Assembly: GCA_963796495.1 (NCBI GenBank)
Contig: CAWCLU010000001.1
Span: forward strand, 1,470,631 to 1,534,630
DNA: 64,000 nucleotides
Source: an uncultured Acidobacteriota bacterium
Lineage (GTDB): Bacteria > Acidobacteriota > Terriglobia > Acidiferrales > UBA7541
Direction: 5' to 3'
The notes below the pieces were generated by a model that was not told the origin of the DNA, made no database searches, and saw only the letters and a program-made list of their open reading frames with translations. Position numbers and translations under genes: made by a program. Numbering within the stretch: the stretch's first letter is position 1; every line of letters starts with the position of its first letter. This document shows, one piece after another, positions 714 to 58,180 of this stretch.

Positions 714-1973
714 ATGGATACTGCTGTCCGAGGACTCCGCCCTGCGGCCGTCCGGGGCGTGGTGACCGTGGCGCGCATCGCTTCTCGCATCAGCCAACTG
801 GAAGGCGAAGGGGCCATGGCCGTCTTCGCCCGGGCACGCGAGTTGGAACGTGCCGGCCGGTCCATCATTCATCTTGAATTGGGCGAGCCTGATTTTCATC
901 CCTCGGCTCCCGTGCTCGAAGCGGCGAAACGGGCTCTCGACGCGGGCCGGGATCGCTACTGCCCGCCGGCCGGTCTGCCGGAACTTCGCGAGGCGATTGC
1001 CGAATACTTGAAGCGAACACGGGCATTGGAGACGCATTCGGATCGCGTTTTGATCGGGCCGGGGTGCAAAGCGGTGCTGTTTCTGGTCCTGCTCGCGCTG
1101 GTCGAGCCTGGCGACGAAGTGCTCTACCCCGATCCAGGCTTCCCACTTTACGCTTCCCTTACCCGCGGGCTCGGCGGCATTCCTCGGCCTTTCCGCCTGG
1201 CGGAGGCGCATCGATTCCAGGCCGATCCGGAGGAGATCGAGGCCGCGATTACGCCACGCACGCGCGTGCTTATCCTGAACTCACCGAACAATCCCACCGG
1301 CTCGGTCGATGACGAGGCGGTGCTTGCGAAGCTGGCGCGCCTGGCGATCGAGCACGACTTTTTCGTTGTCTCTGACGAAATCTATGCCCGCATCGTTTAT
1401 AACGTCACTTACCGGTCGATTGCCGGGTTTCCGGGCATGGCGGACAGGACGGTCATCGTGGACGGGTTCTCGAAAAGCTTTGCGATGACGGGATGGCGGC
1501 TGGGATATGCGGTTGCGCCGCCGGAGGTGCACGCGGCGCTCCGGATGTTGGTGGAAAATTCGTACACGTGCGCATCGGAATTCATTCAGTGGGCGGCGAT
1601 CGAGGCTTTGCAAGACACCGCCGGAGCGGTACCGGCGATGGTCGCCGAATATCGGCGGCGCCGTGAGCTTCTGGTTGGGGGCTTGAGCAAGATTCCCGGA
1701 TTCCGCTGCCGGCCGCCCGAGGGCGCTTTCTACGCGTGGGCGGATATCACCGAGACCGGCCTGAATGATCGCGCCATGGCCGAATTTCTGCTCGAAGAAG
1801 CGGGAGTTGCGGCGATACCTGGTTCCGCGTTCGGCGCCGGAGGATCGGGATTTCTGCGGTTCTCGTTTGCCGCAAATTCCGCGTCGCTCGAGCAGGCCGC
1901 CACGCGCATTCGCAATGTTTCCTCCCGATGGGCTTCGGTTCCTACCGCCAGTTCTCCAACAAGGTCGTCATGA
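714..1973 (+). CDS. PLP-dependent aminotransferase, class I/II (aspartate/aromatic type)
   Basis: ORF 594..1973. Motifs LELGEPDF, NSPNNPTG and the PLP-lysine box FSKSFAMTGWRLGY. Start placed at ATG 714, which gives a typical N-terminus; the exact start is uncertain. Confidence 0.85.
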   Translation: MDTAVRGLRPAAVRGVVTVARIASRISQLEGEGAMAVFARARELERAGRSIIHLELGEPDFHPSAPVLEAAKRALDAGRDRYCPPAGLPELREAIAEYLKRTRALETHSDRVLIGPGCKAVLFLVLLALVEPGDEVLYPDPGFPLYASLTRGLGGIPRPFRLAEAHRFQADPEEIEAAITPRTRVLILNSPNNPTGSVDDEAVLAKLARLAIEHDFFVVSDEIYARIVYNVTYRSIAGFPGMADRTVIVDGFSKSFAMTGWRLGYAVAPPEVHAALRMLVENSYTCASEFIQWAAIEALQDTAGAVPAMVAEYRRRRELLVGGLSKIPGFRCRPPEGAFYAWADITETGLNDRAMAEFLLEEAGVAAIPGSAFGAGGSGFLRFSFAANSASLEQAATRIRNVSSRWASVPTASSPTRSS

Positions 1974-3304
1974 AATTCAAACAGAGATACGTTTGGCTGA
2001 TTTTGCTGGGATGGCTCGGTTTCGCGCCGGCATTGGGCGGCCAGTCGCGACCACTTCCAGGGAGCGATGTTTCCTCGCTCTACCAAAACTTGCTCGAGCA
2101 AATCGATCGCATTCCCATCATCGACAATCACTCCCACCCCGGCTACCCGAACGATTCCGACGTCGACGCGATGGCCTTGCCGCCCAACGAATCCATCCCG
2201 TTTCGTCTGCGCGCTTCGAACCCCGAGTGGGTCGAGGCGGATAAGGCGCTCTTCGGTTATCCCTACGATGACTACTCCCCGGCGCACGTTCGCTGGCTCG
2301 ATCAGAAGAAGGCCGGGCTCGAGAAGACCTATGGCAACGAGTACTTTTCGCACATTCTCGACGAGGTCGGCATTCAGTACGTCGTCGCCAATCGCGTCGC
2401 CATGCCCGCCTATCTCGATCCGGCGCGGTTTCGCTGGGTGTTTTTCGTCGACTCGTTCTTGTTTCCGCTGAACAACCGCCGATTCATCGCGCTGAATCCC
2501 GACGAGGCCGTTTACATTCCACTCCAGGAAAAGGTGCTGCACCGCTACATGAAACAGGCCGGCATCACGGGCCTGCCCGCCACGCTCTCCGGCTATGAAG
2601 CCTTCATTCGCCGAATTGTGGAAGAAAACAAGAAGCGCGGCGCGCTCGGCATGAAATTCGAAGCTGCCTATTTCCGCTCGCTGCATTTTTCCGATCCGCC
2701 GCGGGCCCGCGCGCTGGCCATCTACGAGAAGTACCGCTCGGGCGGAGTGCCTTCCGCGGAGGAGTATCGCGTTTTTCAGGATTACATTTTCCGGTACCTG
2801 ATCGCGCAGGCGGGGCGCGTGCACCTCACCGTTCATTTCCACACGGCGGTCGGCGTGGGCGACTATTTCAATCTCACGACCGGCAACGTGATGAATCTCG
2901 AGAACGTGCTGCGCGACCCGCGCTACCGCGACGTAACGTTCGTCCTGCTGCACGGCGGCTACCCGCTCGAGCGCGAGGCCATCTGGCTGGCCGCCTTGCC
3001 CAACGTCTATCTCGATTCCTCGCTGATGGAACTCTATATGTATCCGTGGCAGTTCCGGCGCTCGCTGCGCGAGTGGCTCGAGCTGTATCCGGACAAGATA
3101 ATGTTCGGCTCCGATGCCTTTCCGTTCGGTGGGGGGCTCGGCGCGGAGGAAGTCTATTGGCTCGCGGTGCAGTCGGTCCGAACCGCTCTGGCGGCCGACC
3201 TGGCGGATATGGTTTCCGAGGGTGAGGTGAACGAGGCTCAGGCTCTCGAACTCGCCCGCGGCTACCTGCACGACAATGCCGCGCGCCTCTATGGGCTCCA
3301 TTAG
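1970..3304 (+). CDS. amidohydrolase-family (Amidohydro_2-like) metal-dependent hydrolase, secreted
   Basis: ORF 1928..3304. Start at ATG 1970 (MKFKQRYVWLILLGWLGF.. signal-like) overlaps the upstream stop as ATGA. Motifs IIDNHSHPG, HFHTAVG and GSDAFPF are typical of the family. Confidence 0.8.
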   Translation: MKFKQRYVWLILLGWLGFAPALGGQSRPLPGSDVSSLYQNLLEQIDRIPIIDNHSHPGYPNDSDVDAMALPPNESIPFRLRASNPEWVEADKALFGYPYDDYSPAHVRWLDQKKAGLEKTYGNEYFSHILDEVGIQYVVANRVAMPAYLDPARFRWVFFVDSFLFPLNNRRFIALNPDEAVYIPLQEKVLHRYMKQAGITGLPATLSGYEAFIRRIVEENKKRGALGMKFEAAYFRSLHFSDPPRARALAIYEKYRSGGVPSAEEYRVFQDYIFRYLIAQAGRVHLTVHFHTAVGVGDYFNLTTGNVMNLENVLRDPRYRDVTFVLLHGGYPLEREAIWLAALPNVYLDSSLMELYMYPWQFRRSLREWLELYPDKIMFGSDAFPFGGGLGAEEVYWLAVQSVRTALAADLADMVSEGEVNEAQALELARGYLHDNAARLYGLH

Positions 3305-3451
3305 ACCGCGCTTCTGAGATCCCGCCGAAACGCCGCTCGCCTGTGGGCGCTCCCAGGCGGCCCTGGCCCGTGCTAGGCTGAGAAGCGTGAGGGGCCATGC
3401 AGGGACGGCGCGTGCGCGTGGATCCGCCCGGCAAGCCAGGGAGTGCGCGAG

Positions 3452-5512
3452 ATGGACGACGGCTCCTTTTTCAATCTCTACCGGCACAATTTCGCGCGGG
3501 TGGCCGTTGCGATTCCAGAAGTGCGCGTTGCCGATCCCGGCTTCAACGCTACGCAGACCATCTCTCTGATCGAGCAGGCCGCTGAACGGAAGACGCTGCT
3601 GGTGGTATTCCCGGAGTTGGGGCTCTCGGCGTATTCGTGCGAGGACCTGTTTCAGCAGCAGGCGCTGCTCGATGCGAGCCACGAGGCGCTCGGCAGAATC
3701 CTCGATGCTTCGCGCCAATTCCCTGTTGTCGCGGTCGTTGGGTTGCCGCTGGTTTTCGACAACATGCTCTTCAATTGCGCGGCTGTGGTGCATGGCGGGC
3801 GGCTGCTGGGGCTTGTGCCGAAGAGCTACCTGCCGAATTACCGGGAGTTTTACGAGATGAGGCAATTTGCGCCGGCGGATCATCGGCTGCGCGATGAAGT
3901 CGATCTCGCAGGCCAGCAGGGCGTGCCGTTTGGAACTCGGCTGCTGTTCCAGGCGGAAGACCAGCCGCTTTTCACCTTTTTTATCGAGATCTGCGAAGAC
4001 CTTTGGGTGCCGATTCCGCCTTCGTCCTACGCCTCGCTGGCCGGAGCAACCGTACTCATCAACCAGTCGGCTTCGAACGCCACGATTGGGAAAGAGGATT
4101 TTCGGCGGCTGCTGGTCGCCAGCCAATCGGGGCGCGCGATTGCGGGCTATCTCTACTGCGCGGCCGGGCCCGGCGAATCGACCACCGATCTCGCCTGGGA
4201 CGGGCACGGGCTCATCTACGAAAACGCGACGCGGATTGCCGAATCGGAGCGTTTCCGCTATGGCTCGCAGCTTGTGACGGGCGATATCGATCTCGACCGG
4301 CTGTCGCAGGATCGCATGCGACAGAACAGTTTTCACGAAGCGATCCGCATTCATCGCGACGAGCTGGAGTGCTTTCGCACGATTCGCTTTGCCGCGCGCC
4401 CGCCCGTCGCGGAGCGGCTTCCGCTCGAGCGAGCGTACGAGCGATTTCCTTACGTGCCATCGGTGCCCGCTCGACGCGACGAGCGCTGCCGCGAAGTCTA
4501 TGAAATCCAGGTGCAGGGATTGGTCAAGCGTCTGCAATCGACTGGATTGCAGAAAGTCGTAATCGGAGTTTCTGGCGGGCTCGATTCGACGCAGGCGCTG
4601 CTCGTCTGCGCCCGCGCCATGGATGTGCTCGATCTGCCTCGCCGGAACATCCTCGGCATCACGATGCCCGGTTTCGCGACTACCACGCGCACGCTCGGCC
4701 AGGCGCATCGGCTGATGGCCGCGGTCGGCTGCGAGGACCGGGAAATCGACATTCGGCCCAGCTGCATGCAAATGCTGAAGGATATTGGCCATCCGTACGC
4801 CGCGGGACAGCCCGTATTCGATATCACTTTTGAAAACGTGCAGGCGGGCGAGCGGACGAGCCATCTGTTTCGCCTGGCGAATCTGAATGGGGCGCTGGTC
4901 GTGGGCACGAGCGATTTGAGTGAACTCGCGCTCGGCTACTGCACTTACGGCGTCGGGGATCAGATGGCGCATTACCACGTGAATGCCAGCGTGCCGAAAA
5001 CGCTGGTGCAGTATCTGATCGGCTGGGTGGCGCGAACGGGGCAACTGGGGCCGGAAGGCAGCGGCGTTCTCGACGAAGTGCTGGCGACGAGCATCAGTCC
5101 GGAACTTGTGCCTGGCGAGGCCGGCGAGCAACCCGCACAGCGCGCCGAGGAACTCATCGGGCCTTACGAGCTGCAGGATTTTCATCTCTACTACATCCTG
5201 CGCTTCGGCTACGCGCCGCCGAAAGTGGCGTTCCTCGCGTGGTCCGCCTGGCACGACCGCGAACGCGGCAGTTGGCCCGACACTCCGGAATTGAAGGGGC
5301 GCCAGTACAGCATCGGCGAAATCAAGCGGTGGCTGGGCATCTTCCTCGAACGCTACTTCCATTTCAGCCAGTTCAAGCGCAGCGCGATTCCGAACGCGCC
5401 GAAAGTGGGCTCGGGCGGGTCGCTTTCGCCGCGCGGCGATTACCGCGCACCGAGCGACTCCGAGGCCACGGCGTGGCTGGCGCAGCTTGGTCAAATCCCC
5501 GATGCGGAATGA
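3452..5512 (+). CDS. nadE: glutamine-dependent NAD+ synthetase (long form, CN-hydrolase plus synthetase domains)
   Basis: About 686 aa. N-terminal nitrilase-like domain ([24 protein letters not shown]) and C-terminal NAD synthase domain ([15 protein letters not shown]). ATG 3452 is preferred over GTG 3443 because of its spacing to AGGGAG. Confidence 0.92.
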
Positions 5513-5575: not shown

Positions 5576-5613
5576 ACATCCTTTACAGAGTGTTATCAGG
5601 ACATTCTTTACAC
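5576..5613. repeat. left terminal inverted repeat of the IS
   Basis: GACATCCTTTACAGAGTGTTATCAGGACATTCTTTACAC. Its reverse complement recurs at 6816..6854 with a few mismatches. Confidence 0.85.
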
Positions 5614-6765
5614 TTGCGGGTCAGTGTCGCTCAGCCAGCGGTCCACCGCGGTGGACCGCTGGCTGAGCGGGTCGAGCTCGCGGACCAGGCTGCGGCAGTA
5701 GTAGACCAGGATCCGTCCTTCGACCCGGATCAGTTCCACCCATTCGCCGGCCAGGGCCCGGCTGATGTCCCAGCGGCGGCCCTCGAGGCAGAGCTGACCC
5801 TCAGCCTGCAACTTGCGCACCTCGGCTCCCGCGTCGTATTCCCAGGCCGGCGGATTCGGCTGATACCGTTTCGTGCTCTTGCTCCACACCGAAGCCGGGG
5901 TCCGCATGCCCAGCGCTTCATGGGGACGCACGTGGTTGTATTCCTGCCGGAACGCGTCCAGCCACACCTGGCGCTGCTCGCCGACCGGCACGCCGCGCCG
6001 CCGCATCGCCGCTTCCAGCGTTCCATGGAAACGCTCCACCTTCCCTTGCGTCTGCGGATGCCGATAGCCGCTGAAGTGCATCCGAATGCCCTGCTTCATC
6101 AGCCACACCGTCAGCCAGGTCCAACCCGTCGCCGCCCGCATGTTCCACCACGGCGTGCCGTGATCCATCAGCATCGCCTCCGGCACGCCGGACTGCGTGA
6201 ACACCGCTTCCAGACACTCGCGCACCGCATCGGCTCGCGTCGACCAGGTCCCGGTGAGCGTCACGGCGTAGCGGCTGTGATCGTCGAGCAGCGAGAGCGG
6301 GCCGACCGGCGCGTCCCAGCCCACCGGGCTCTTGAAATCCATCTGCCAGAGCTGGTTCGGCGCGCCGCGCTCGAACCGCTTCGTCGCCGCGCGATGCCGG
6401 TCCTGCGGCCGCACCAGATCATGGCGATGCAGAATCCGCTGCACCGTGATCACCGGCAGGTCCACGCCCTCGCCCGCCAACAGATGCCGCAGCTTGCGCG
6501 CTCCCCAGTCGGGCCGCTGCTCGCGCAGTTCGACAACGCGCTGCTCGATCCCCACCGGCGTCCGCGCCGGACTGTGGCGCGGACGCCGGCTCCGCTCGGC
6601 CATGGCGACCAGCCCGCCCTCCTGATAGCGCCGCAGCCAGACGTAGCCGGTTGGCCGCGAGATCTCGAACTCCCGGCACAGTGCCTGCATCGTCTTCTCG
6701 CGCCGGCTGGCGCAAACCACAAACCGCATCCGCTGCTCGTCTACGTCCACGGTCCCCCAAGCCAT
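5608..6765 (-). CDS. IS481-family transposase (HTH plus integrase-core/rve domain)
   Basis: 385 aa. N-terminal HTH (MQALCREFEISRPTGYVWLRRYQEGG, RSRRPRHSP). Catalytic core has WQMDFK ... LLDDHSRYAV ... MLMDHGTPWW ... HPQTQGKVERFH. Confidence 0.9.
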   Translation of the reverse strand: MAWGTVDVDEQRMRFVVCASRREKTMQALCREFEISRPTGYVWLRRYQEGGLVAMAERSRRPRHSPARTPVGIEQRVVELREQRPDWGARKLRHLLAGEGVDLPVITVQRILHRHDLVRPQDRHRAATKRFERGAPNQLWQMDFKSPVGWDAPVGPLSLLDDHSRYAVTLTGTWSTRADAVRECLEAVFTQSGVPEAMLMDHGTPWWNMRAATGWTWLTVWLMKQGIRMHFSGYRHPQTQGKVERFHGTLEAAMRRRGVPVGEQRQVWLDAFRQEYNHVRPHEALGMRTPASVWSKSTKRYQPNPPAWEYDAGAEVRKLQAEGQLCLEGRRWDISRALAGEWVELIRVEGRILVYYCRSLVRELDPLSQRSTAVDRWLSDTDPQV

Positions 6766-6968: not shown

Positions 6969-7721
6969 TCAACTCGAAGCGATCACGCTCTCGATAAAAC
7001 GCCGCATTCGCCAATAGTGAAAGCCTTTCCAGTAGATCTGCCCGCACCCAGGACAAAGGAGAAATTCATCGTAGTGTTTGCTGGTTTCCGGCGGAAGGCG
7101 ATCGGCGACCGACTCCTTCGTGGCGGGCTGCAGGATGGCGTTGCAATGAAGGCAGCGCCGGAATGGCTGCATCCTCGGGACCAGATCGAATCGTCGCAGC
7201 ACTTCGACCAGCTGCCTCATCGGATCCGTCGTGTGAACGAAGTAACCACGCGTGACGATGTTTCGCTTGAGGAGCCCGCGGTCACGCGTCAACACAATCC
7301 GCTGCTCGTCCGCGGAAATGGCGGCCAGTTCCTCATCGCCGGCATCCCGCCGATACCAGGTATCGAAGCCGAGCATGCGGAGGTAAGCGGCGAGCCGGCC
7401 CAGGTGCGCGTCGGCGACAAAACGGAATTCCGCCGGCGGCTCCGGCCGCAGAGGGTTGAGGAGTGAAATGTCCAGCGATCGGAACGGAGGATAGACGCTG
7501 ATCCGGTCGCCATCCTGCACGCGATAGGCGAAATTCACCGGCTCGCCATTCACCAGGATCAATTCCACTTCCGTGTGCGGCACGCCAAGCGATTCGATCA
7601 GGTCTTTCACCGATCCGCTGACGTAAAAGGAGCAGGTGCTGGCGCGCGCCCGTCTCTCGAGCGCCAGAAAATCGTTCAGCGCCGCGTAGAACCGAACCTG
7701 GGCATGCTTCATCGTGGACAC
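6969..7721 (-). CDS. Mut7-C RNase-domain protein with N-terminal ubiquitin-like (beta-grasp) domain and C-terminal zinc ribbon
   Basis: 250 aa. N-terminus VRFYAALNDFL...SVKDLIESLGVPHTEVELILVNGEPV is ThiS/MoaD-like. The middle FVADAHLGRLAAYLRMLGFDT ... IVLTRDRGLL is PIN-like Mut7-C. The C-terminus has CLHCN...CPGCG. Confidence 0.8.
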   Translation of the reverse strand: MSTMKHAQVRFYAALNDFLALERRARASTCSFYVSGSVKDLIESLGVPHTEVELILVNGEPVNFAYRVQDGDRISVYPPFRSLDISLLNPLRPEPPAEFRFVADAHLGRLAAYLRMLGFDTWYRRDAGDEELAAISADEQRIVLTRDRGLLKRNIVTRGYFVHTTDPMRQLVEVLRRFDLVPRMQPFRRCLHCNAILQPATKESVADRLPPETSKHYDEFLLCPGCGQIYWKGFHYWRMRRFIESVIASS

Positions 7722-11162: not shown

Positions 11163-11503
11163 TGGACCTCCTTGCCACGTTTCAGAGCCTGAACATCATA
11201 CTCCGAGCCCAAAGCGGTGTGGGATCGAAAACCATGAACCCGCAGCTGTAGGTTCATGCGCTAAGCTCGCGCGGGATTTCGACGCGGGCTTGCATCATCC
11301 CGCTCCACAACCCGCGATAGTCACCGGCCAGCACGTTCCCGCTGCGCGTCGGTTTCCGGCTGCAACAGGGGCATACGGGCATCCAGCCGTCAACACGAAC
11401 CGGGCATGGCAGTCTCCGGTGCTGAAGGTCGAAGCGAGAAAAAACGATTTGCTATACTCGGCCAGGCGCCGAGTGTACAAGTAGGAATATCCGGGAGGTC
11501 AAA

Positions 11504-12088
11504 ATGGAAACCTCAGATCCTAACCGCAAGGGAGATCGACAGGCCGATTCGAAGCCCAAGAGCCGGGTGGACTTGGACAAGATGCGCGTGGAGTACGAGA
11601 AGTTCCGCGAGAGCGCGAGGACACGACCGAATCGCGGGCAAATCACGATTCGCGCCGTGGCGAATATCCTGGAAAACGTTCACCTGGAAGGCAGGGCGCG
11701 CGGTTTTCGCTTCGAAAGCGACGAACCCGAGGAGCGCGGCGGCACCAACCTGGGCCCGGCTCCCCTGTCGTTTTTCGTCATCGGCGCCGCTTTTTGACTG
11801 CTCACCCAGATTGCGCGGTTCGCGCATCTTTACGATGTTCCCATCGAAGAGGGCAAGGTTGAGGTTCGCTGCGGCTTTGATGTCTCGGACAAGCTCGGCC
11901 TGGACGGCCCCGGCGCCGCCTTTGACAGCATCAGTTTCGCCGTCGACTTGCAAAGTCCCGCACCGCCCGAGCAGGTGAAAAAACTGATCGAACACGCGCG
12001 GCGCGGCTGCCATGCAGAGCAAAGTTTCGGGCATCCAATCCCGGTCACCGCTTCGGCCAAGCTGAACGGGAGTGACCTGGAGCTTTAA
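11504..12088 (+). CDS. OsmC/Ohr-family peroxiredoxin-like protein with in-frame TGA (candidate selenocysteine) at codon 98
   Basis: The ORF track stops at TGA 11795..11797. The same frame continues with no further stop to TAA 12086..12088. N-part ...GTNLGPAPLSFFVIGAAF and C-part LLTQIARFAHLY...EHARRGCHAEQSF together make one OsmC fold. The TGA sits where the first conserved Cys lies. GGGAGG Shine-Dalgarno precedes ATG 11504. Confidence 0.6.
11808..11830 (+). promoter_or_regulatory. candidate bacterial SECIS hairpin
   Basis: AGAUUGCGCG-GUU-CGCGCAUCU starts 10 nt after the UGA. It has a 6-bp GC-rich upper stem, one bulged U, a 3-bp lower stem and a GU-containing apical loop about 21 nt from the UGA. 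Confidence 0.45.
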
Positions 12089-24830: not shown

Positions 24831-25661
24831 TCAGGGAAAGAGCCACAGGAGCAGTTTGTCGAGAAAGAAGCCCGAGACGAGGATCGAGACCGAAGCGATG
24901 ACGACGGCGCTGGTGGTTGCGCGGCCGACGCCCTGCGTGCCGCCCCGCACCTTTAATCCCTTGAAGCACCCGACGGTCGCAATGATGAATCCGAAGACGA
25001 GCGGTTTCGACAGCCCCTGGATCAGGTCATTCGTGCCGGGGGCGTTGATCGCATGATTCCAGAATTCGGGGCCGCTCAATCCGAGCGTGGTGTGCGCGAC
25101 GATGAATGCGCCGATCAGGCCAACGAAATCGGCGACACCGGTGAGCAGCGGGAGGACGATGATCGTCGCCAGCATCCGCGGGGTAACCAGTTTCCTGCCC
25201 GGGTCGGTGCCCATCGCCCGCATGGCATCCACCTGTTCGGTGACCACCATGGAGCCGAGCTCCGAGGCGATGCCCGAGGAGCTGCGGCCGGCGACGAGCA
25301 GCGCGGTAATGGTCGGGCCGAGTTCGCGGATCAGGGCGAGCGAGACGGCGTCACCGGTGAGCGCGGTGGTGCCGAAGCGGGCGAATTGCGTGGCGGTCTG
25401 CAGAACGAGAATGGCGCCGATGAAAAAACCGGTCAGGACGACGATCGGGAGCGACCCGACACCGATGATGTCCATCTGATCGAGAAGATCGCGGAAATAG
25501 AAGGGCGGAGAGAAGACGTCGACGAGGGCTTTCCAGGAGAGGACGGAATAGTCCTGCACGGCGAGCAGGCGGAGCTTGATCGCGTCGTTCACGACCGCCA
25601 TGAGCGGACGCGGCTCGGGCTCGGTCTGCTGGCCGGTACGGTTTGGTGTCAGCGTGGCCAT
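24831..25661 (-). CDS. mlaE: ABC transporter permease (MlaE family)
   Basis: ORF 24831..25763. Start at ATG 25661. Multi-TM protein with segments typical of MlaE permeases (RELGPTITALLVAGRSSSGIASELGSM, VDAMRAMG). Confidence 0.85.
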   Translation of the reverse strand: MATLTPNRTGQQTEPEPRPLMAVVNDAIKLRLLAVQDYSVLSWKALVDVFSPPFYFRDLLDQMDIIGVGSLPIVVLTGFFIGAILVLQTATQFARFGTTALTGDAVSLALIRELGPTITALLVAGRSSSGIASELGSMVVTEQVDAMRAMGTDPGRKLVTPRMLATIIVLPLLTGVADFVGLIGAFIVAHTTLGLSGPEFWNHAINAPGTNDLIQGLSKPLVFGFIIATVGCFKGLKVRGGTQGVGRATTSAVVIASVSILVSGFFLDKLLLWLFP

Positions 25662-25886
25662 GGAGCGTGTTTGAGCGTGCCTTTCCCCTTCCGGGCAAGC
25701 GTATGCCGCGCGCCATTTGCCGTCAAGGAAGGCGGCGCGGCACGGGATCCGCCCGAGGCGCAAACCACGACGGCAGGATGGGTGGGAGCGGGCCGTGGGA
25801 GCCCGCGCGGAGGGACTTTCGCAACGCGAAATTTCGTCCTATACTCCGCGCGGCGGAACTGGCCGCGAGGGCGGCGCACAAACAGG

Positions 25887-28719
25887 ATGAGTTTCAGTCG
25901 GCGGGAATTTCTGAAGACGGCAGCGGGAGCGACGATCCTGACCGGCGTGGGATGCTGGGCCACGGTTCGCTTGCCGGGCATTCTCGATGACGGGCGTCCT
26001 GTTTCGACGACAGTGCCGACGCTGTTCCCCGCCCCGCACATCATCCGCTACGATTCCCGCTGCTTCACCATCCACGACCGCGACGAATTTCTTTTCAGCG
26101 CCTGTTTCCATTACACGCGCTGCCCCGAGCCGCTCTGGCGCGACCGCCTCGAAAAGCTCCGCCGCGCCGGATTCAACGCGATTGAAAGCTACGTCTTCTG
26201 GAACTATCACGAGCCCGTGGAGGGCCAGGCGGATCTCGGCGAGTTCGAGCGGTTCATCAAGCTCGTCGGCGAAATGGGATTCCGGATGATCGCGCGGCCG
26301 GGGCCGTACGTCTGCTCCGAATGGGACGCGGGCGGATTTCCGCATTGGGTAATCGCGAAGCGGTTTCCGCTGCGTTCGGGTGATCCCGAGAGCATCCGAA
26401 CTTCGCGGCACTGGTTCGATCTGGTGCTGCCGGTGATCGCTCGGCATCAGATCACGCGCGGCGGGCCGATCGTGCTGATGCAGATCGAAAACGAATACGA
26501 TTACTGGAAGCTCGACGAACCCTCGAAGGTCGCCTACGTCACCGCGCTCGCCGAAATGGCCTGGAGCGCGGGCATCGACGTTCCGCTGCTGACTTGCTGG
26601 ACGCATCAGGTGCGCGAGCACCCGAATCCGGCCCTCGGCCACGTTTTCGACTGCTGCAATTTCTATCCGCGCTGGAACATCTTGAAAGTAGTTCCGCCGG
26701 CGCTCGCGCAGCTTCGCCAGGCGCAGCCGAATGCTCCCCAGGCCGTCACCGAGCTGCAGGGCGGCTAGTACAGCGAGGTGGGCGGGAAGCTCTCGGCGGA
26801 CCAGGAGGGTCTTGGACCGCCGCAGATCAACATGCTTTCGAAAACGGTGATCGAGCAGGGTGTCACCTTTTTCAGCTATTACATGGGCTTCGGCGGGACG
26901 AACTTCGACTGGGCGGGCAAGGGGCTCACCACCACCTACGATTACGACGCGCCGCTGCACGAGCCCGGCGGCATGGGCGACAAATACTACGTCGCGCGCG
27001 GCATCGGCGAATCGCTGCGGCTGCTGGGCGGCGCGCTCACCCGCGCCGAAGAGGCCGAAACCCAGCCGGAATCGACGAATCCCGCCGTGAGCGCGAGGCT
27101 GCGGCTGAACCGGGCACAGGGACGGGCGAGCGGCGCGATCTTCCTGCGCGAAAACGAGAATGCCGACCAGAACGTTCCGGTTGCGGCTGCCCGATCCGGC
27201 CGAACCGGCCAACCGGGCCGATCGGGCGCGGCGGCTGCTGGTGCCGCGGCGCGGCACGCTGATGCTCGGCGCGCGCGAGATGAAGATGTGCCCGGTCGGG
27301 TTGGCACTCGATGGCGGCGAACTGCGCTATTCGACGGCGGAAGTGCTGGCGCAGGGAGAAGCGGGACGCGCGTGGGTCATCCTCTACGAGCAGCCGGGAC
27401 GGCCGGTGGAGATCGCGCTCGCGGCCGAGCGACTGCCGCGCATCGTGGGCGAAACAGCGTATCGCGATTGGGAGCCGGAGTCTCGCGCCGCAGTGATCGG
27501 GCTGCGCACGGACGAAGACCCTCGCATGGTGCTGGTCGACGACCGCCTGCAAGTGATTCTGCTCCAGCGCGAGAATGCATTGCGCAGTTGGGTCGGGAAG
27601 TTTCCGCGGGCGACCGTGGCCGGAGAAACGAGCGCGGCCGCGGATGTCTCGATTCCCTTCCTCACCGATGCGGCGCTGCTCGGGGAGACCGGGCACAGCG
27701 CGAGCGGAATCTGGGCGGATATGGAGTTTCTGCCAGGCGAGCATACCGTCACCACTCTGCTGCCGCGGCGACCCGCAAGTTGCCGGATCAATGGCGAGGC
27801 TGCGGAGGTTTCCTACGATTCGATGTGGCAGACGGCTCGCGTCGGCCTGACGGCGCCGGCGCTGCCGGTCCAGCCGGTGGAAATCCGGTCGGTCGAAACC
27901 TGGGTGGAACGGTTCGATCCGGTGCTCGGAGATTGGCTGCTGAGCCCGCTGAAACCACTCGAGGAACTGGGCCAGATTCCCTACGGCTACGTGAAATACC
28001 GGCACGAATTCAATGCGAGCGGCGAAGGAACGGTCTCGATCGCCTCTTTTGCCGACGACGGCAAGAAAGTGTTTTTAAATGGCAAGCCGGTTCCCGAAGC
28101 GTCGACGCCCACGACACACACCGTTTTCCCGCTGACCGCGGCGGCAAAACCGGGGATCCATACGCTCGAAATCGTCTACGAACTGTTTGGGAGCCCGAAT
28201 TTCGGGCCGAAGATCGCCGAGCTGAAAGGAATCGAATCGGCGACGCTGATGAGCGATAACGGCCAGGTGCCGCTCGATGGACCGTGGCATATTCAGCGAG
28301 TGCCAGCCGCGATGCGCGGACGCGAAGTCGATCCCGATTTTCATTCCGGCCCGTGGACGCACGCGCCGCTTGCCGAACGCGGCCTTGCGGCGGCTCCCGT
28401 GGCCGCGTTCACCTGGTGCCGAGCGGAATTCTCGCTCGCGAAGACGCCCGGGAACTGGCAGGTCCCCTGGCGAGCGGAATTTCGCGCCGATTGCGACGCG
28501 TTGATCTACCTCAATGGCAAATTCGTGGGACGTTATGCGACAGTCGGGCCGCAAACGCATTTCTTTCTCCCCGACTCGTATCTGCGCTTCGGCGGGCAGC
28601 CGAACGTACTCACGGTTGTTCTGGCGTACGCGCAGGATGCGCGGCCAATTCGCGAATTGCGAATCGCGCCGTATTGGGAGTTCGCCACCTATCGCGCGAG
28701 GGTCGGATTCGAGTGGTAG
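25887..28719 (+). pseudogene. glycoside hydrolase family 35 beta-galactosidase, disrupted by an in-frame TAG (26766..26768) and a +1 frameshift (~27155..27175)
   Basis: Twin-arginine-like signal MSFSRREFLKTAAGA. GH35 core FNAIESYVFWNYHEP, GPYVCSEWDAGGFP, MQIENEY. ...VTELQGG-TAG-YSEVGGKLS continues in the same frame (ORF 26778..). The C-terminal beta-sandwich domains lie in the next frame (ORF 27160..28719). Confidence 0.8.
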
Positions 28720-33566: not shown

Positions 33567-34688
33567 GTGAGCACTCCGGGAACGAAAGAAACACTCCGAA
33601 AAACTGCTCTTAACGCCGTCCATCGCCGGATGGGGGCGAAGATGGTGAATTTTGGCGGCTGGGACATGCCGGTCGAGTATTCCGTTATTACGGCCGAGCA
33701 TCTGGCGGTGCGCACGGCGGCGGGAATCTTCGACGTCAGCCACATGGGCGAAATCGAGATCCGCGGGCCGCATGCGCTGGACCTCATCCAGTGGGTCACA
33801 TCCAACAACGCCGCGAAACTCGCCGTCGGCCAGGCGCAATATTCCGGCCTGATGAACGAGCGGGGCGGGTTTGTCGACGATCTGCTGGTGCACAAGCGAT
33901 CCGACACCCACTATTTCCTCTGCGTGAACGCCTCGAATCAGGACAAGGATTTCGAGCATTTCGTGCGGCACAACCGCTTCGGCGCCGAACTCGAAAACGC
34001 CGGGCCGCGCTATACCCAACTGGCCATTCAGGGGCCCCGGGCGCTCGAAATCGTCGAGCGATTCACCCGGCTGGATCTTTCGGTGATCCGCTACTACCAC
34101 TTCGCGATGGGACAGGTGGACGGCGTCGATTGCCTGGTGGCGCGCACCGGCTACACGGGCGAGGACGGGATCGAACTCTATTTCTCGCCGGAACATTCCG
34201 AAAAGCTCTGGAACGATCTGCTGGAATCCGGCAAGCCCGAGGGCCTGATTCCCTGCGGGCTGGGCGCGCGGAACACGCTGCGCATGGAAGCGGCAATGTG
34301 CCTCTACGGGCACGAAATCGATGAAACGACCACGCCGCTCGAAGCGAACCTCGGCTGGATCACGAAACTCGACAAGGGCGAATTCCTGGGGCGCGAGGTG
34401 ATCGGGCGGCAGAAAGAACAGGGATTGACGCGGCGCCTGGTCGGTTTTGAGATGATCGACAAGCTGATCGCTCGCGAGGAGTATCCGATCCTCGATCCGG
34501 CGAACGGTCCCGATCCGGTGGGGCGAGTGACGAGCGGAGGGCCGGCGCCTTTTCTGAAGAAGAATATCGGGATGGCGTACGTGCCGCTCGCGATGGCCGA
34601 GCCGGGTACGGAGCTGAAGATCGGGATTCGCAAGCATGAGGCGCCGGCGCGCGTGGTGCCGCTGCCGTTTTACAAGCGGGCTCGATAG
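33567..34688 (+). CDS. gcvT: glycine cleavage system aminomethyltransferase T
   Basis: 373 aa. Segments GAKMVNFGGWDMPVEY, GIFDVSHMGEIEIRG, ARTGYTGEDGIELY. Confidence 0.93.
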   Translation: MSTPGTKETLRKTALNAVHRRMGAKMVNFGGWDMPVEYSVITAEHLAVRTAAGIFDVSHMGEIEIRGPHALDLIQWVTSNNAAKLAVGQAQYSGLMNERGGFVDDLLVHKRSDTHYFLCVNASNQDKDFEHFVRHNRFGAELENAGPRYTQLAIQGPRALEIVERFTRLDLSVIRYYHFAMGQVDGVDCLVARTGYTGEDGIELYFSPEHSEKLWNDLLESGKPEGLIPCGLGARNTLRMEAAMCLYGHEIDETTTPLEANLGWITKLDKGEFLGREVIGRQKEQGLTRRLVGFEMIDKLIAREEYPILDPANGPDPVGRVTSGGPAPFLKKNIGMAYVPLAMAEPGTELKIGIRKHEAPARVVPLPFYKRAR

Positions 34689-34709
34689 CGGGCGCGGCAC
34701 GGACTGGCG

Positions 34710-34740
34710 CACCGCAGAGACGCTGAGGACGCCGAGAAAG
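34710..34740 (+). repeat. REP family D copy
   Basis: CACCGCAGAGACGCTGAGGACGCCGAGAAAG, in the gcvT-gcvH spacer. Confidence 0.7.
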
Positions 34741-34830
34741 CATCGAGCGCTGATGGAAACCGTGGGGGCGGAGTTAACCTGCCCTTACAAGCACCGCTAC
34801 AGGGAATAACAGGCAGGATCGAGGCGAACC

Positions 34831-35232
34831 ATGTATCCGACCGATTTCCGCTACACCAAGGAACATGAGTGGGTAAGACTCGAAGGTGATATCGCGACCG
34901 TGGGCATCACCGATTACGCCCAGCACGAACTGGGCGACGTCGTCTACGTCGAACTGCCGGCCGCCGGCGCGAAGGTGGAAGCCGGGCAGGCGTTCGGGAC
35001 GGTGGAATCGGTGAAATCGGTGAGCGAGATTTTCAGCCCGGTGACGGGCGAAGTGACCGAGGCGAATGCCGTGCTCGCCGACCATCCGGAAACCATCAAC
35101 CAGGACGCTCACGGAGCGGCATGGCTCGTGCGGATTCGCGCGTCGAGCGCGGCGAGCGACATCCAGTCGCTGATGGACGCCGCCGCTTACGAAGCCTATA
35201 TCGCCGAACAACAGAAGGAAGCCTCCGCCTGA
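34831..35232 (+). CDS. gcvH: glycine cleavage system H protein
   Basis: 133 aa. Segments [30 protein letters not shown] and the lipoyl-lysine box VESVKSVSE. Confidence 0.93.
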
Positions 35233-36626
35233 TGCGCTACCTCCCGAAGAGCGACGCCGAACGCCGGGCGATGCTCGAGACGATCGGCGCGAAATCCATC
35301 GAAGACCTGTTCGGATCGATCCCCGAAGAGTTCCGGCTGAAGCAACCGCTTGCGATCCCCGGACCGCTGTCGGAAGCCGAGATCATCTGCTATTTCCGCG
35401 AGCGCGCCGGCGAGAATTCCGTCGGCTACGCCTCATTTCTCGGCGCGGGCGTCTACCGGCACTTGCGATCCGTGGTCGCCGATGCCCTGCTCCAGCGCGG
35501 CGAATTCCTCACCGCCTACACTCCCTATCAGGCGGAAATCAGCCAGGGCACGCTGCAGTGGATTTTCGAGTTTCAGACGATGGTGAGCCAGCTCACCGGG
35601 CAGGAAGTGGCGAACGCTTCCATGTACGACGGCTCGACGGCGCTGGCCGAAGCGGCGCTGATGGCCGAGCGGCTGACCGGCCGGCATCGGCTGGTGGCGG
35701 CGCGGTCGCTGCATCCCGAGTACCGGCAGGTGCTCGAAACGTACGCGCAGCACGCGGGACTCGAGATCGAATCGTTCGGCTACGCCTCCTCGGGGCGCGT
35801 CGATCTCGACGCGCTGCGCGCCGCGATTGACGATAAGACGGCGGCGGTTGTGGTTCAATCGCCGAATTTCTTTGGCGTCGTCGAGGAGATTGCCGCGGCG
35901 GCGGAGATTGCGCACGCTGCCGGCGCGTTGCTCGTGGTCGCGATCGCCGAAGCCGTATCGCTCGGCATCCTACGGCCGCCGGCCGAGGCCGATATCGTCG
36001 CGATGGAGGGGCAGAGCTACGGATTGCCGCCATCCTACGGCGGACCGTTTGTTGGCGTGATGGCGACGCGGGAGAAATTCGTGCGCCAGATGCCGGGACG
36101 CCTGGTCGGGCAGACGACCGACGCAAAAAGCCAGCGCGGCTTTTGCCTGACCCTCGCGACGCGCGAACAGCATATCCGCCGCGAGAAGGCGACTTCGAAC
36201 ATCTGCACGAACCAGGCGCTCTGCGCGCTGGCGATGACGATGCACCTTACGTTGCTCGGCCGCCAGGGCGTGCGCGAGTTGGCAGAGCAAAACCTGGCGA
36301 AAGCGCGCTACGCGCGGGAGAAACTCGAGGCGATTCCCGGCGTCGAGCGCGTCTTCCCCGCCCCGACGTTCAATGAATTCGTTTTGCGCCTGCCGCGCTC
36401 GGTGCGGCTGGTCAACCAGGCGCTGCTCGAAGACAAGATCATTGGCCCGCTCGCGCTCGGCCGTTTCTATCCCGAACTCGCCAAGTGCGGGCTGTTCTGC
36501 GTCACGGAGACGACCACGCGGGAGGAGATCGACCGGCTGGCCGATTCTCTCGCCCGAATTCTGGGCGCGGAAAGCGCGGCCGAACCGGGCGCCGAACTCA
36601 AGGGCGCGGCCGGACGAAAGTCCTAG
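35232..36626 (+). CDS. gcvPA: glycine dehydrogenase (decarboxylating) subunit 1
   Basis: ORF 35121..36626. Start at ATG 35232 overlaps the gcvH stop (TGATG). Segments [19 protein letters not shown]..., [14 protein letters not shown]. Confidence 0.92.
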
Positions 36627-36639
36627 GGAGAACGGAACC

Positions 36640-38130
36640 TTGTCCGACGATCGCATCAAGAAGGCACGACGGCACGTCAACCAATCGGAAGGGCTGATTT
36701 TCGAGGTTTCCGGCGCCGGCAAGCGGGGCATGGAACTGCCGAAACTGGACGTGCCGGCCGCCGACGCAAAGCGGGAACTGGGCTCGGACATCGTGCGCGA
36801 CGACGTCGAAGGATTCCCCGAGGTCAGCGAGATCGAGGTGGTGCGCCACTTCACGCGGATCTCCACCTGGAACTACGCGATCGATTACGGCATGTACCCG
36901 CTCGGCTCGTGCACCATGAAGTACAACCCGCGCGTGAATGAATTCGTCGCGCGGCTCGAAGGCATCGCCACCGAGCATCCCTATCAGCCGGCCGAACTCG
37001 CCCAGGGCTGCCTGCGCATCCTGCGCGATCTCGAAGAGGCGCTCGTCGCGATCACCGGCATGGATGCGGTTACGCTCGAACCGGCGGCCGGCGCGCAGGG
37101 CGAGCTGACCGGGCTGCTCGTCATCCACGCCTATTTGAAGGACACGCAGGGCAATCCCCGCAAGAAAGTTCTGATCCCCGATTCGGCGCACGGAACGAAT
37201 CCCGCGAGCGTCTCGCTGACCGGCTACCAGGTGGAGAACATCCGCTCGAATGCCTCCGGGCAGATCGATTTCGCGGAGCTCGAGCGCCTCGTGACCGAAG
37301 ACGTCGCGGCGCTCATGATCACGAATCCGAATACGCTCGGCGTGTTCGAGGAGCGCATGGCCGACGTCGCCCGCCTGCTGCACGAGCGCGGCGCGCTGCT
37401 CTACATGGACGGCGCGAACATGAACGCGCTGACGGGAGTGGCCCGGCCGGGCGATCTGGGCGTCGACGTGATGCACCTGAACCTGCACAAGACGTTCTCG
37501 ACGCCGCATGGCGGCGGCGGGCCGGGCGCGGGACCGGTGGCCGTGAAAAAGCGGCTTGAGCCGTACCTGCCGGTACCGGTGATCGTCGAAGATGGCAGCG
37601 GTGGCTTGAAACTCGATACCGAGCGGCCGAAATCGGTGGGCCGGGTGAAGGCCTTTGGCGGGAACTTTGGAGTGCTGGTGCGGGCGCTGTCCTACATCCT
37701 GGCTTACGGGCCGGGTGTCCGCCAGGCGACCGAAGACGCGGTGCTCAACGCGAACTACATCCGCAAGAATCTCGAAGACGTCTACGAGCTGCCCTACCAG
37801 TCGCCGTCGATGCACGAGGTGGTCTTCAGCGATGCGCGGCAGAAGAAGAACGGCGTCGGCACCATCGATATCGCCAAGCGGCTGATCGATTACGGCTTCC
37901 ATCCGTACACGACCGCGTTTCCGCTCATCGTGCACGGCGCGCTGATGATCGAGCCGACCGAATCGGAGTCGAAAGAAGAGTGCGACCTGTTCGTCGACGC
38001 GATGCGCGCGATTGCCGAGGAAGCCGAGAGCGATCCGAACCTCGTGAAAACTGCGCCGCACAATACGCGCATCGGGCGGCTCGATGAAGTGACCGCGGCA
38101 CGCAAACCCATCCTCCGCTGGAAGCCGTAG
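36640..38130 (+). CDS. gcvPB: glycine dehydrogenase (decarboxylating) subunit 2
   Basis: ORF 36373..38130. TTG 36640 follows GGGAGA just after the gcvPA stop. Segments YPLGSCTMKYNP and the PLP site NLHKTFSTPHGGGGPG. Confidence 0.9.
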   Translation: MSDDRIKKARRHVNQSEGLIFEVSGAGKRGMELPKLDVPAADAKRELGSDIVRDDVEGFPEVSEIEVVRHFTRISTWNYAIDYGMYPLGSCTMKYNPRVNEFVARLEGIATEHPYQPAELAQGCLRILRDLEEALVAITGMDAVTLEPAAGAQGELTGLLVIHAYLKDTQGNPRKKVLIPDSAHGTNPASVSLTGYQVENIRSNASGQIDFAELERLVTEDVAALMITNPNTLGVFEERMADVARLLHERGALLYMDGANMNALTGVARPGDLGVDVMHLNLHKTFSTPHGGGGPGAGPVAVKKRLEPYLPVPVIVEDGSGGLKLDTERPKSVGRVKAFGGNFGVLVRALSYILAYGPGVRQATEDAVLNANYIRKNLEDVYELPYQSPSMHEVVFSDARQKKNGVGTIDIAKRLIDYGFHPYTTAFPLIVHGALMIEPTESESKEECDLFVDAMRAIAEEAESDPNLVKTAPHNTRIGRLDEVTAARKPILRWKP

Positions 38131-38520: not shown

Positions 38521-40430
38521 ATGAAACGATGGTCATTGCTTCTGGGCGCGGTAGCTCTCGTCGCGTCCGTGTCTTGCTTCGGTCAGACGGATGTGAAGGG
38601 CGCAGCCGGCGCCGTTGCGCTAACGGTGCGATTACCCAATCCGAAGCAAAAGATTCTATATGTGCATGAGGTGATGCCGGTCAGGCCGGGGCCGCTGACG
38701 CTTTACTACCCGAAATACATTCCCGGTGATCACTCGCCGGACGGGCCGATCGGCACAATGATGGGTCTGGAAATCACGGCCGGCGGCAAACGGATCGCAT
38801 GGCTCCGTGACGAAGTGGACATGTTCACGTTTCATTTGACCGTGCCGGCGGGCGTCGACCGGATCGATATCCGCTTCCAGTTCCCGGCACGTGACCGGGT
38901 CACACCGCATCTCATGGGTCTCGAGTGGAATACATGTGGCGCTGTACCAGGCCGGTTATCCGACCAAGGTGCAGATCGTATCGAACCGACACTGGTGATC
39001 CCCGCCAGCTGGCGCTATGCGAGTGCGCTGACGACAGAAGAACGCAGCGGCGGGCGCATCACGTTCAAGCCCGTACCGTTCAACACGCTGGTCGATTCAC
39101 CGGTGATTGCCGGGAAATATTTCCGGGAGATTGATCTCACCCCAGCCGGCTCGTCGGTGCATCGTTATCTCGATATGGTCGGGCGATGACGCGGCGGCAC
39201 TGGATATTTCCGATGCCCAAGTCGCCGATTATCGTCATCTGGTCGAGCAGGCACAGGCACTGTTTCACTCGCATCACTACGGCGACTATCACTTCCTTCT
39301 GACGTTGAGCGACTACGTCTCGACGGGTGGTCTGGAGCACCACCAGTCGAGTGATGACCGCGCGCGCAGCGGCGCGAAGATGTTTGCCGACGCCGACCAT
39401 TTCATGCTCGATGCCTCGCTGTTGCCGCATGAATACACACACTCATGGAACGGCAAATTCATGCGTCCGGCAGAACTGTGGCAGCCCGACTTCGAGCGTC
39501 CCGAACATACGCAGATGGTGTGGGTGTATGAGGGCCTCACGGTCTACCTCGGCGACATGTTGACGGCGCGAAGCGGGTTGTGGTCGCCGGATACCTGGCG
39601 TCAGGTGGTCGCCTACCGGGCGGCGGTACATGGCGCACCAAACCGGTCGCGAGTGGCGGCCGCTGATCGACACCACCGCCGCCGCGCAGTTGCTCTACGG
39701 CTCGCCGAGCGCATGGTCGAACTGGCGCCGGCAAACCGATTTTTATCGTGAAGGCCAACTGCTGTGGCTCGCCGTCGACATGAAGATCCGCACGTTAAGC
39801 CACGATCGGCATTCGATTGACGATTTTGCCCGGCAATTTTTCGGCGTCGACAACGGCAGTTTCATGACCCATACCTACACCTTCAACGATGTCGTCGCCG
39901 CGCTCAATGCGGTCCAGCCGTATGACTGGGCGAGCTTCCTGCACAACTGGCTGTACGGCGTGGGCCAACAGGTTCCGCTGCTGTCCGGCATCGACGCCAG
40001 CGGTTGGCGTTTGGTCTATTCCGATCAGCCTTCGCGGTACCAGAAGGCGCTCGAGAACGTCGGCGAGGGTGAACTCAGCAGAAAAGGTGTCAACGCAATG
40101 TTCTCGGTGGGCTTGTTCCTCGATCGGCAAGGCAAGGTCGAGGACGTGTTATGGAACGGACCGGCTTTCAAGGCCGGGCTCGCGCCGGGCATGAAGCTCG
40201 TGGCCATCGACGGCCACCCGTACAGCACCGGCGTGTTGCGAAGCGAAATCGCCCAGGCGCAGAAGAGCAGGAAGCCGTTGCAGATAATCGCGAAGGGCGA
40301 CGGCGTCACCGCGCTCTACACGGTCTATTACGACGGTGGACTGAGGTACCCGCATCTTGTCCGCGTGCCGGGCACGACCGATTACCTGCAGCAGATCCTC
40401 GCACCAAAGCCGTTGGACAATGGCTCGTAA
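38521..40430 (+). pseudogene. M61-family glycyl aminopeptidase with C-terminal PDZ domain, multiple frameshifts
   Basis: Three overlapping ORFs (38521..39189, 39107..39751, 39630..40430) together give signal peptide, M61 N-domain, zinc site HEYTHSWNGK and PDZ (GLAPGMKLVAIDG). Frame breaks near 39181..39185 and 39628..39630. A probable compensated pair lies near 38932 and 38982. Confidence 0.8.
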
Positions 40431-44083: not shown

Positions 44084-44278
44084 ATGATGAACGGTCAAGA
44101 GGAGTTCCGGCAGTTGGCAGGCAGGCTCCGCGAAGGTTTCCCCGACCCGGCCGGGGAGCCGCCCCGATCGTGGGCGGGCAAGGATTCCGTGGGCGCCAGG
44201 CGCGTTCGAAGCGGAATCGCCGGACTTGCAGAAAGCATTTTCAGCGGTGATTTCTGGATCGTGCGGGAGCATTCGTGA
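44084..44278 (+). CDS. small hypothetical protein possibly coupled to the ABC ATPase
   Basis: Internal ATG of ORF 43991..44278 (MMNGQEEFRQLAGRLREGF...). Its TGA overlaps the GTG start of the next gene (GTGA). Confidence 0.25.
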   Translation: MMNGQEEFRQLAGRLREGFPDPAGEPPRSWAGKDSVGARRVRSGIAGLAESIFSGDFWIVREHS

Positions 44279-48621: not shown

Positions 48622-48748
48622 CCCCGAAGTCCTACCCATTTTTCCGCAACTTGTGAAGCCGGACCCTCACGAAGCAGGCGTCACCACGGAGACGCCCTCT
48701 GCTGTGTGTTTTGCGCACGTCGAAAAACGTTGCTGCCGGCTGCGCCGG

Positions 48749-51700: not shown

Positions 51701-51770
51701 GCCGAAACCGGCGCCCTGTCGTGCGCGGACCGCCGAGAAAAGAGCGCAAAGAACCCAGTAGCATGAACAA
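48749..51770 (-). pseudogene. large lipoprotein with five Ig-like (Cys-pair) repeats and four C-terminal beta-rich repeats; one frameshift near 49233..49245
   Basis: ORFs 48681..51770 and 48749..49294. Lipobox LTFGC. Five ~95-aa modules each carry GV[TN]W ... CSPxCG ... TYTAP. They are followed by four ~110-aa modules (G-x-Y-x-F ... F-x-ADG-x-G ... GSY-x-V). The last module is in the other frame. Confidence 0.75.
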
Positions 51771-58172: not shown

Positions 58173-58180
58173 GGAGAAAC

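Follow-up and report, generated by a model that had tools for sequence, protein, structure and literature searches.

The 64-kb stretch of acidobacterial DNA analyzed here, hereafter the window, carries on its forward strand, at positions 11504..12088, a gene of the OsmC-like family with an in-frame TGA. From the ATG at 11504, the frame runs for 97 codons to this TGA, the only one within the open reading frame (ORF), and then for another 96 sense codons to a TAA. An earlier, sequence-only reading of this DNA had described the two halves in the same way, and its coordinates for them hold. We propose with high confidence that they make up one intact gene, encoding a 194-residue OsmC-like selenoprotein (NF041052; COG1765/YhfA-type branch) in which UGA is read as selenocysteine (Sec). 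The features of the locus are the following, with lengths in nucleotides (nt) or amino acids (aa):

11493..11498, forward strand: Shine-Dalgarno-like GGGAGG, 5 nt 5' of the ATG, read directly from the sequence.
11504..12088, forward strand: predicted coding sequence, complete at 194 aa, of the OsmC-like selenoprotein; Sec is residue 98 and the TAA occupies 12086-12088.
11795..11797, forward strand: UGA, the predicted selenocysteine codon (U98), which opens the UxxT motif as U-L-L-T (residues 98-101).
11808..11829, forward strand: putative Sec insertion sequence (SECIS) hairpin, assigned from its local fold, its fdhF register and its synonymous constraint.
11870..11872, forward strand: extra Cys codon (C123), Cys in 59/71 Sec-type sequences.
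12008..12010, forward strand: second conserved Cys codon, TGC (C169, in RRG-C-HAE), homologous to the resolving Cys.

The translated product provided insights into the nature of the gene. When the TGA was replaced by Cys in translation, the OsmC domain of Pfam (PF02566, E 2.7e-13) was matched by aa 80-182 and bridged the TGA, in agreement with the sequence-only reading of one OsmC fold across the two halves. The NCBIfam model NF041052, 'OsmC-related (seleno)protein', was matched with 140.3 bits against a cutoff of 95, with aa 47-189 covering positions 2-144 of the 144 in the model. The window protein belongs to a selenoprotein family that is already known and curated, and is not new in kind. 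The first report of this family came from Zhang, Fomenko & Gladyshev 2005 (Genome Biol 6:R37; PMC1088965), who described three Sargasso Sea sequences assigned to COG1765 and displaying the motif UxxT. It appeared again, with five sequences, in GOS (PMC2398784), and OsmC-like selenoproteins with the UxxT motif are also included in reviews from 2022 and 2026 (one of them PMC13188914). The statement in the sequence-only reading that such proteins had been reported from marine metagenomes is correct (PMC1088965; NF041052). The window protein shares with the published family the OsmC domain (COG1765/YhfA, PF02566), the UxxT motif, the pairing of Sec- and Cys-containing homologues, and a SECIS-like hairpin with a small G-containing apical loop just past the UGA. 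Meanwhile, the published family was derived from a handful of marine sequences, whereas the window member is acidobacterial and has many metagenome relatives. Its N-terminus is 12 residues longer than that of the metagenomic protein P0001, and its subclade displays the extra Cys C123. In the public protein collection, the source contig is represented by a 97-aa fragment (P0152) that ends at the TGA, which is exactly the truncation that ORF callers had been predicted to make. The IspG protein of the window is 100% identical to a protein (P0032) from this 4,512,595-bp contig, and Acidobacteriota are its nearest named relatives.

Besides the window gene itself, we considered the codon that its relatives use in the homologous column, a check that the sequence-only reading had proposed. 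In a metagenome scan, 303 relatives were confirmed and 80 of these retained; the metagenome and genome collection scans gave 101 further loci, for 104 in all, and the codon at the homologous column was extracted by script. It was TGA in 87 loci, TGC or TGT in 14, and TGG in one, while the motif was not found in two. The TGA loci derive from independent metagenomes and metagenome-assembled genomes (MAGs), and span from 92% down to ~40% aa identity to the window protein. Their MAG labels include Chloroflexi, Actinomycetes, Dormibacterota, Eisenbacteria, and Deltaproteobacteria. The TGA is also kept in L032, the closest relative at 92% identity.

A protein search also gave full-length relatives. 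Those at <=55% identity had Cys where the window has TGA, the nearest five over the full length showed 'W', and four others stopped exactly at ...AAF. In the two loci checked, L001 (position 1134) and L002 (position 2377), the 'W' corresponds to TGA in the DNA. The false 'W' in the JGI proteins P0001-P0004 arose because genes on short contigs had been called under genetic code 4. A genuine TGG was found at L003:616-618 (GCA_030157165.1, protein P0005), where the SECIS core GCG CGG TTC GCG was kept; this TGG stems either from a recent mutation, of the inactivating or the escape kind, or from faulty assembly. A neighbour-joining tree computed without the Sec column grouped the TGA-type genes into two deep clades with the Cys-type clades between them, and placed the TGG sequence inside a TGA clade. 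By alignment, the relatives are a classic Sec/Cys pair. One of the TGA-type loci deserves separate mention: L084 (DATLSU010000010.1, 115.9 kb), labelled 'Patescibacteria group bacterium', encoded a 77%-identical TGA-type gene and matches the JGI metagenome contig L004, which is almost equally long, and we suspect that its taxonomic label is wrong.

The pattern of selection on either side of the TGA was analyzed in 71 distinct TGA-type coding sequences with a median pairwise nt identity of 67%. Downstream of the TGA, the entropy at codon positions 1, 2, and 3 was 0.59, 0.41, and 1.42, compared to 0.68, 0.53, and 1.41 upstream. The ORF ended 95-101 codons past the TGA in 66 of the 71 genes. Since the same pattern of purifying selection is found on both sides of the TGA, the downstream half is, on the evidence of these codon positions, translated and under purifying selection at the protein level.

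The hairpin AGA-U-UGCGCG/GUU/CGCGCA-UCU begins 10 nt past the UGA and occupies positions 11808-11829. Its lower stem pairs AGA with UCU (11808-10 with 11827-29), followed by a bulged U at 11811 or 11812, a U-A pair (11812-11826), and a GC stem formed by 11813-11817 with 11821-11825. The apical loop GUU lies at 11818-11820, 21 nt past the UGA, and would become GGUUC if the pair G23-C27 opens (numbers below 100 count nt from the U of the UGA). The local hairpin folds at -10.2 kcal/mol and qualifies as a bacterial SECIS by the criterion taken from PMC1088965. The sequence-only reading had given the same hairpin with the correct sequence, 10-nt spacing, and loop distance of 21 nt, and had placed its end at 11830, which should read 11829.

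We computed the synonymous-codon entropy for each of the 94 conserved columns in the 71 TGA-type genes. Codons +6 to +9 (GCG CGG TTC GCG, 11813-11824), which make up the upper stem and loop of the hairpin, had the four lowest synonymous entropies of the 94 columns, with normalised values of 0, 0, 0.11, and 0, where the median for the gene is 0.74. There was zero synonymous variation among the 71 sequences at the Ala (4 codons), Arg (6 codons), and second Ala positions. The chance of obtaining GCG CGG TTC GCG for the peptide A-R-F-A under the codon usage of the window is ~5%. Meanwhile, the Cys-type group encodes the same apex amino acids variably. The Arg at the apex is CGG in 71/71 Sec-type genes, whereas those Cys-type genes that have Arg there use CGC or CGT and never CGG. 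The third base of this codon is the first loop base, G24, in the TGA-type genes, and a pyrimidine in the Cys-type genes.

The pairing itself was followed in 57 distinct Sec-type sequences. Pair 18-32 was U-A in 26 of them, G-C in 29, and mismatched in two; a single sequence with Val-GTT maintains pairing with His-CAC at this position. The GUU loop and U17 were unchanged in 57/57, while the lower stem AGA/UCU was variable across the family. The mean local hairpin energy was -11.5 kcal/mol in the TGA-type genes and -8.3 kcal/mol in the Cys-type genes. Collectively, the comparison of these sequences shows an RNA-level constraint on the hairpin apex that is specific to the UGA-type genes. The putative functional core is U17, a GC stem of 6-7 base pairs, and the GUU loop.

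This hairpin is reminiscent of the fdhF SECIS of E. coli, the SelB-binding hairpin past UGA140, which we extracted from NC_000913 as a reference. Both are in-frame hairpins that begin ~10-14 nt past the UGA, and both display a bulged U at nt 17/18 and UGC at 18-20. Both also have a small G-U apical loop, which is GGUC at 22-25 in fdhF, compared to GUU at 24-26, closed by G23-C27, in the window; the loop G-U lies at nt 23-24 in fdhF and at 24-25 in the window, a shift of ~1 nt. The upper stem of the window hairpin is made of 5-6 GC pairs, against 3-4 mixed pairs in fdhF, and its lower stem, unlike that of fdhF, is short and unconserved in the family. The bulged U and the loop G-U are the SelB contacts in fdhF, and by analogy the window hairpin may interact with SelB as well. 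The suggestion of a SECIS-like element made by the sequence-only reading is thus strengthened by the fdhF register and by a synonymous constraint that is confined to TGA-type genes.

Ten of the Cys-type loci (L072, L074-L076, and L078-L083) displayed GCG CGC TTC GCG at nt 19-31 after the TGC, where a weaker hairpin without the loop G can form. This weaker hairpin may be a decaying relic SECIS from a Sec-to-Cys conversion, or merely the consequence of an A-R-F-A peptide in GC-rich genomes.

The family profile matched only OsmC/Ohr structures in the PDB, among them 3cje (E 1.4e-17), 2opl, 9wo1, 2onf, and the Ohr structures 6mjn/3eer. The Sec column aligned with the first conserved Cys of 3cje, 2onf, and 9wo1 and with the peroxidatic Cys (Cp) of Ohr (AGYAAC-F). 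The placement of the UGA at the first conserved Cys, claimed by the sequence-only reading, is therefore borne out against solved proteins, with 'peroxidatic' to be read as by homology. C169, the retained second Cys of that reading, is likewise in place as TGC 12008-12010; it aligned with the second Cys of 3cje/2onf/9wo1 and with the resolving Cys (Cr) of Ohr 6mjn, and was unchanged in 84/84 aligned sequences. In an hhalign comparison of the family profile with E. coli OsmC, the C-terminal Cys region alone was aligned (C169 weakly with Cys125), at a probability of 1.5%. The extra residue C123, 25 residues past the Sec, is Ala in the Cys-type genes and in the deep actinobacterial/chloroflexal Sec-type clade, and may act as an extra resolving residue.

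Structural comparisons were made with an AlphaFold monomer model of P0001 (80% identical to the window protein, pLDDT 83). In this model, the Sec position falls within the long central helix, and the top 50 Foldseek matches listed were all OsmC/Ohr proteins. The modest TM-scores (0.4-0.67) are plausibly explained by the fact that OsmC/Ohr proteins are intertwined dimers, while a monomer was modelled. The closest solved relative by both sequence and structure is 3cje, the OsmC-like Jann_2040 of Jannaschia sp. CCS1, a structural genomics target of unknown function (E 4.9e-9 and TM 0.67 normalised by target length, with the P0001 model). It shares the motifs DE..GG..PPL and G-C-x-x-TQ and a second Cys in KKG-C. 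Unlike the window protein, it has Cys instead of Sec, lacks the N-terminal helix of ~45 residues, and is only 26% identical. Compared to the Ohr/OsmC hydroperoxide reductases, which are thiol-dependent and use a two-Cys (Cp/Cr) mechanism, the window protein has the same fold, with U98 at the Cp position and C169 at the Cr position, but a spacing of 71 residues between the two instead of ~60 (PMC5384416).

In the mechanism that we propose, the UGA at 11795-11797 would be decoded as selenocysteine and not as a stop, with the hairpin just past it signalling ribosomal read-through, and translation would continue for 96 codons to the TAA. The selenol of U98 would then lie in the long central helix, where the peroxidatic Cys is found in homologues, with C169 taking the place of the resolving Cys. 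Since U98 and C169 occupy the Cp and Cr positions, a selenol/thiol redox cycle is the most likely one, in which a selenenic acid would be converted into a selenenylsulfide with C169 and then reduced by a thiol donor. The oxidant acted on would be a hydroperoxide or a related compound. The redox chemistry of a predicted selenol/thiol pair is well supported by homology, while hydroperoxide reduction and the substrate are what we tentatively infer from it.

The neighbourhood of some relatives provided indirect support for Sec decoding. In L002:1234-1962 (+), L026:150-860 (+), and L015:3654-4334 (-), a deiodinase/AhpC-like gene adjoins the OsmC-like Sec gene and has an in-frame TGA of its own, in the motif FGSIT-U-PPF. 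Deiodinase-like proteins are a listed bacterial selenoprotein family (PMC1088965), and Acidobacteria, Chloroflexi, and Actinobacteria are phyla with documented selenoproteins (PMC1794560). Taken together, these neighbouring genes and the selenoproteins of these phyla indirectly support Sec decoding in such organisms, and we infer that the source organism of the window decodes Sec.

Several observations weigh against a functional selenoprotein gene. A 66-nt fold of the hairpin region has no thermodynamic significance (z = -0.82, with 36/200 shuffles folding equally well), and the minimum free energy structure of 48 nt favours a different fold by 0.4 kcal/mol. As the hairpin is thermodynamically unremarkable at 64% GC, its significance must rest on the relatives. 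The stem is also partly dictated by the A-R-F-A peptide in a GC-rich genome, and Cys-type genes form a weaker version of it; moreover, the conserved peptide Q-I-A-R-F-A-H-L is encoded by the hairpin region, and nucleotide conservation alone would therefore be weak proof. Searches against Rfam 15 at gathering and permissive thresholds detected no SECIS family at the hairpin and only chance-level unrelated matches, a result that carries little weight because short bacterial SECIS elements inside ORFs are hard for such models. None of selA, selB, selD, or tRNA-Sec was detected in the 64-kb window by Pfam searches of 40 ORFs, tRNA and Rfam scans, and tblastn, and no sel genes were found in ~0.8 Mb of flanks of related loci. 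A tblastn search with E. coli SelA, SelB, and SelD that covered the window and every flank (843 kb) gave a single hit, a weak GTPase match beside a Cys-type gene, and no tRNA-Sec was found in the window or in 55 related loci. Several other genes of the window look disrupted. Finally, the catalytic Glu of Ohr/OsmC (NP-E-QLF) aligned with the invariant Leu88 (P87-L88), so that the window protein would combine Sec as Cp with Leu in place of the catalytic Glu, compared to Cys and Glu in Ohr/OsmC. This replacement places the family in the third, 'Ohr-like', poorly characterized branch, a group without the Arg/Glu pair (PMC5384416), and means that peroxidase activity is not assured. R50 and R78 are invariant in the family.

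These observations must be set against the alternatives that they could favour. If the gene were a pseudogene, through a TGC-to-TGA nonsense mutation or a sequencing or assembly error, it would yield a 97-aa fragment or no product, as public gene calls that end at the TGA imply; this would also be in line with the broken-looking genes of the window (the split GH35 beta-galactosidase, the gcvP region, and the M61 and ClpB-like fragments). We regard this as very improbable, because TGA occurs in 87 independent loci down to ~40% aa identity, including L032 (92%, with a syntenic S15 peptidase), because purifying selection is equal in the downstream and upstream halves, and because the RNA-level constraint on the hairpin is peculiar to TGA-type genes. 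The nonsense mutation that the sequence-only reading had held out as its alternative is excluded by the conservation of the TGA. A small chance is left for a relic, that is, a family that truly encodes Sec in a source organism that has lost the Sec machinery, where the gene would terminate at the UGA. The failure to find sel genes and tRNA-Sec in the window, the signs of gene decay elsewhere in it, and the TGG that replaces TGA in L003 speak for such a loss. Yet neither the gene itself nor its SECIS core, its Shine-Dalgarno site, or either redox residue shows any damage, and the sequence fits the family consensus. Furthermore, the Sec machinery amounts to ~4 kb of a 4.5-Mb genome, and its absence from a 64-kb window is therefore expected.

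Two further alternatives concern what is inserted at the UGA. Mukai et al. reported tRNA(Sec)-like tRNA-Cys (selC*) and acidobacterial allo-tRNA opal suppressors in delta-proteobacteria and Acidobacteria, with suppression in E. coli (PMC5389517), and such a tRNA could put Cys or Ser at position 98, where Cys is functional in the Cys-type relatives. As the sole explanation this is scarcely probable, since the window yielded no such tRNA and NCBIfam treats the family as a selenoprotein, since the fdhF-like hairpin suggests SelB-dependent decoding, and since the deiodinase-like TGA neighbours in relatives carry a canonical Sec motif. The adjacent tRNA of the window was considered as a possible suppressor and ruled out, as it is an ordinary tRNA-Leu(CAA). 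A genome-wide alternative code (table 4 or 25, with UGA as Trp or Gly) could be read from the proteins P0001-P0004, deposited with W at the Sec position, and from the Patescibacteria label of L084. Against such a code speak the GC content of the window (64%), the alternation of the column with Cys and not with Trp or Gly, and the many Pfam-complete genes of the window that terminate at TGA, among them the PfkB, GCV_H, and Mut7-C genes with full-length Pfam coverage. Because TGA terminates genes in the ordinary way elsewhere in the window, we treat an alternative code as excluded for all practical purposes. A screen of the window for other read-through TGA genes revealed no further convincing case; the one candidate, at 59555, is really two neighbouring genes sharing one frame. 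Selenocysteine at the UGA of the OsmC-like gene thus remains by far the best account of these data.

There is a more speculative possibility, to which we give a slim chance: that UGA with an fdhF-like hairpin in Acidobacteria-type genes is, at least sometimes, decoded by a tRNA(Sec)-like tRNA-Cys or an allo-tRNA opal suppressor. If true, a major soil phylum would possess, in its 'selenoprotein' genes, a system of facultative Sec/Cys recoding. No observation made here speaks for such decoding. A less far-reaching variant is that the Cys-type genes, whose clade lies between the two Sec-type clades, keep a decaying relic SECIS (GCG CGC TTC GCG) that records a recent Sec-to-Cys conversion.

The OsmC-like gene is flanked by a divergent S15 peptidase gene and the tRNA-Leu(CAA), and stands alone. 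The upstream S15 peptidase neighbour is common only to the closest relative L032, and no conserved operon was found around the gene among the related loci compared. A promoter/terminator scan gave no informative signal near it.

The remainder of the window displayed a number of other features. A GH35 beta-galactosidase is split between 25053-26765 and 27160-28716 (+), with its catalytic domain cut at profile position 234/319 and domains 2-4 in the second ORF, a pattern suggestive of a frameshift, of a pseudogene, or of an indel in the assembly. A glycine-cleavage cluster (gcvT, gcvH, gcvP) lies at 33567-38130 (+). Its gcvP region looks disrupted: the expected place of the first P-protein subunit, 35233-36373, has no clean ORF, and the ORF of the second subunit is over-extended (585 aa). 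ORFs with partial Pfam matches were found at 38521-39189 (+), 42435-43343 (-), 44275-44832 (+), and 46724-47281 (+), and comprise the N-domain only of Peptidase_M61, an AAA_2/ClpB-like fragment, a short ABC ATPase, and the C-terminal half of an aminotransferase class IV. These partial ORFs fit a contig with many indels or pseudogenes. An IS481-type transposase (5608-6765, -) with rve, HTH_32, and LZ_Tnp_IS481 domains adjoins a Mut7-C RNase/ubiquitin-like gene (6969-7721, -). Three long ORFs, at 1730-5494 (-), 48681-51770 (-), and 57731-59557 (+) (1254, 1029, and 608 aa), had no Pfam match at E <= 0.001. The 1029-aa ORF displayed an unusually high GC content at codon position 2 (0.63) and may not be a real gene.

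These findings have implications for how such genes are annotated. Automated callers truncate them at the UGA, while other pipelines insert a false Trp, as in the four JGI proteins, and both errors spread in protein databases. Calling with genetic code 4 hides selenoproteins as false Trp proteins. The current understanding of Sec decoding is left unchanged by the OsmC-like gene. What our data add concerns the family itself, which is common and deeply distributed in the scanned metagenomes and MAGs, well beyond marine data and, in the window, in a lineage of Acidobacteriota. The OsmC-like family is a well-sampled natural Sec/Cys pair, in which four codons delimit the predicted SECIS and one synonymous position (CGG vs CGC) tells the Sec-type from the Cys-type genes.

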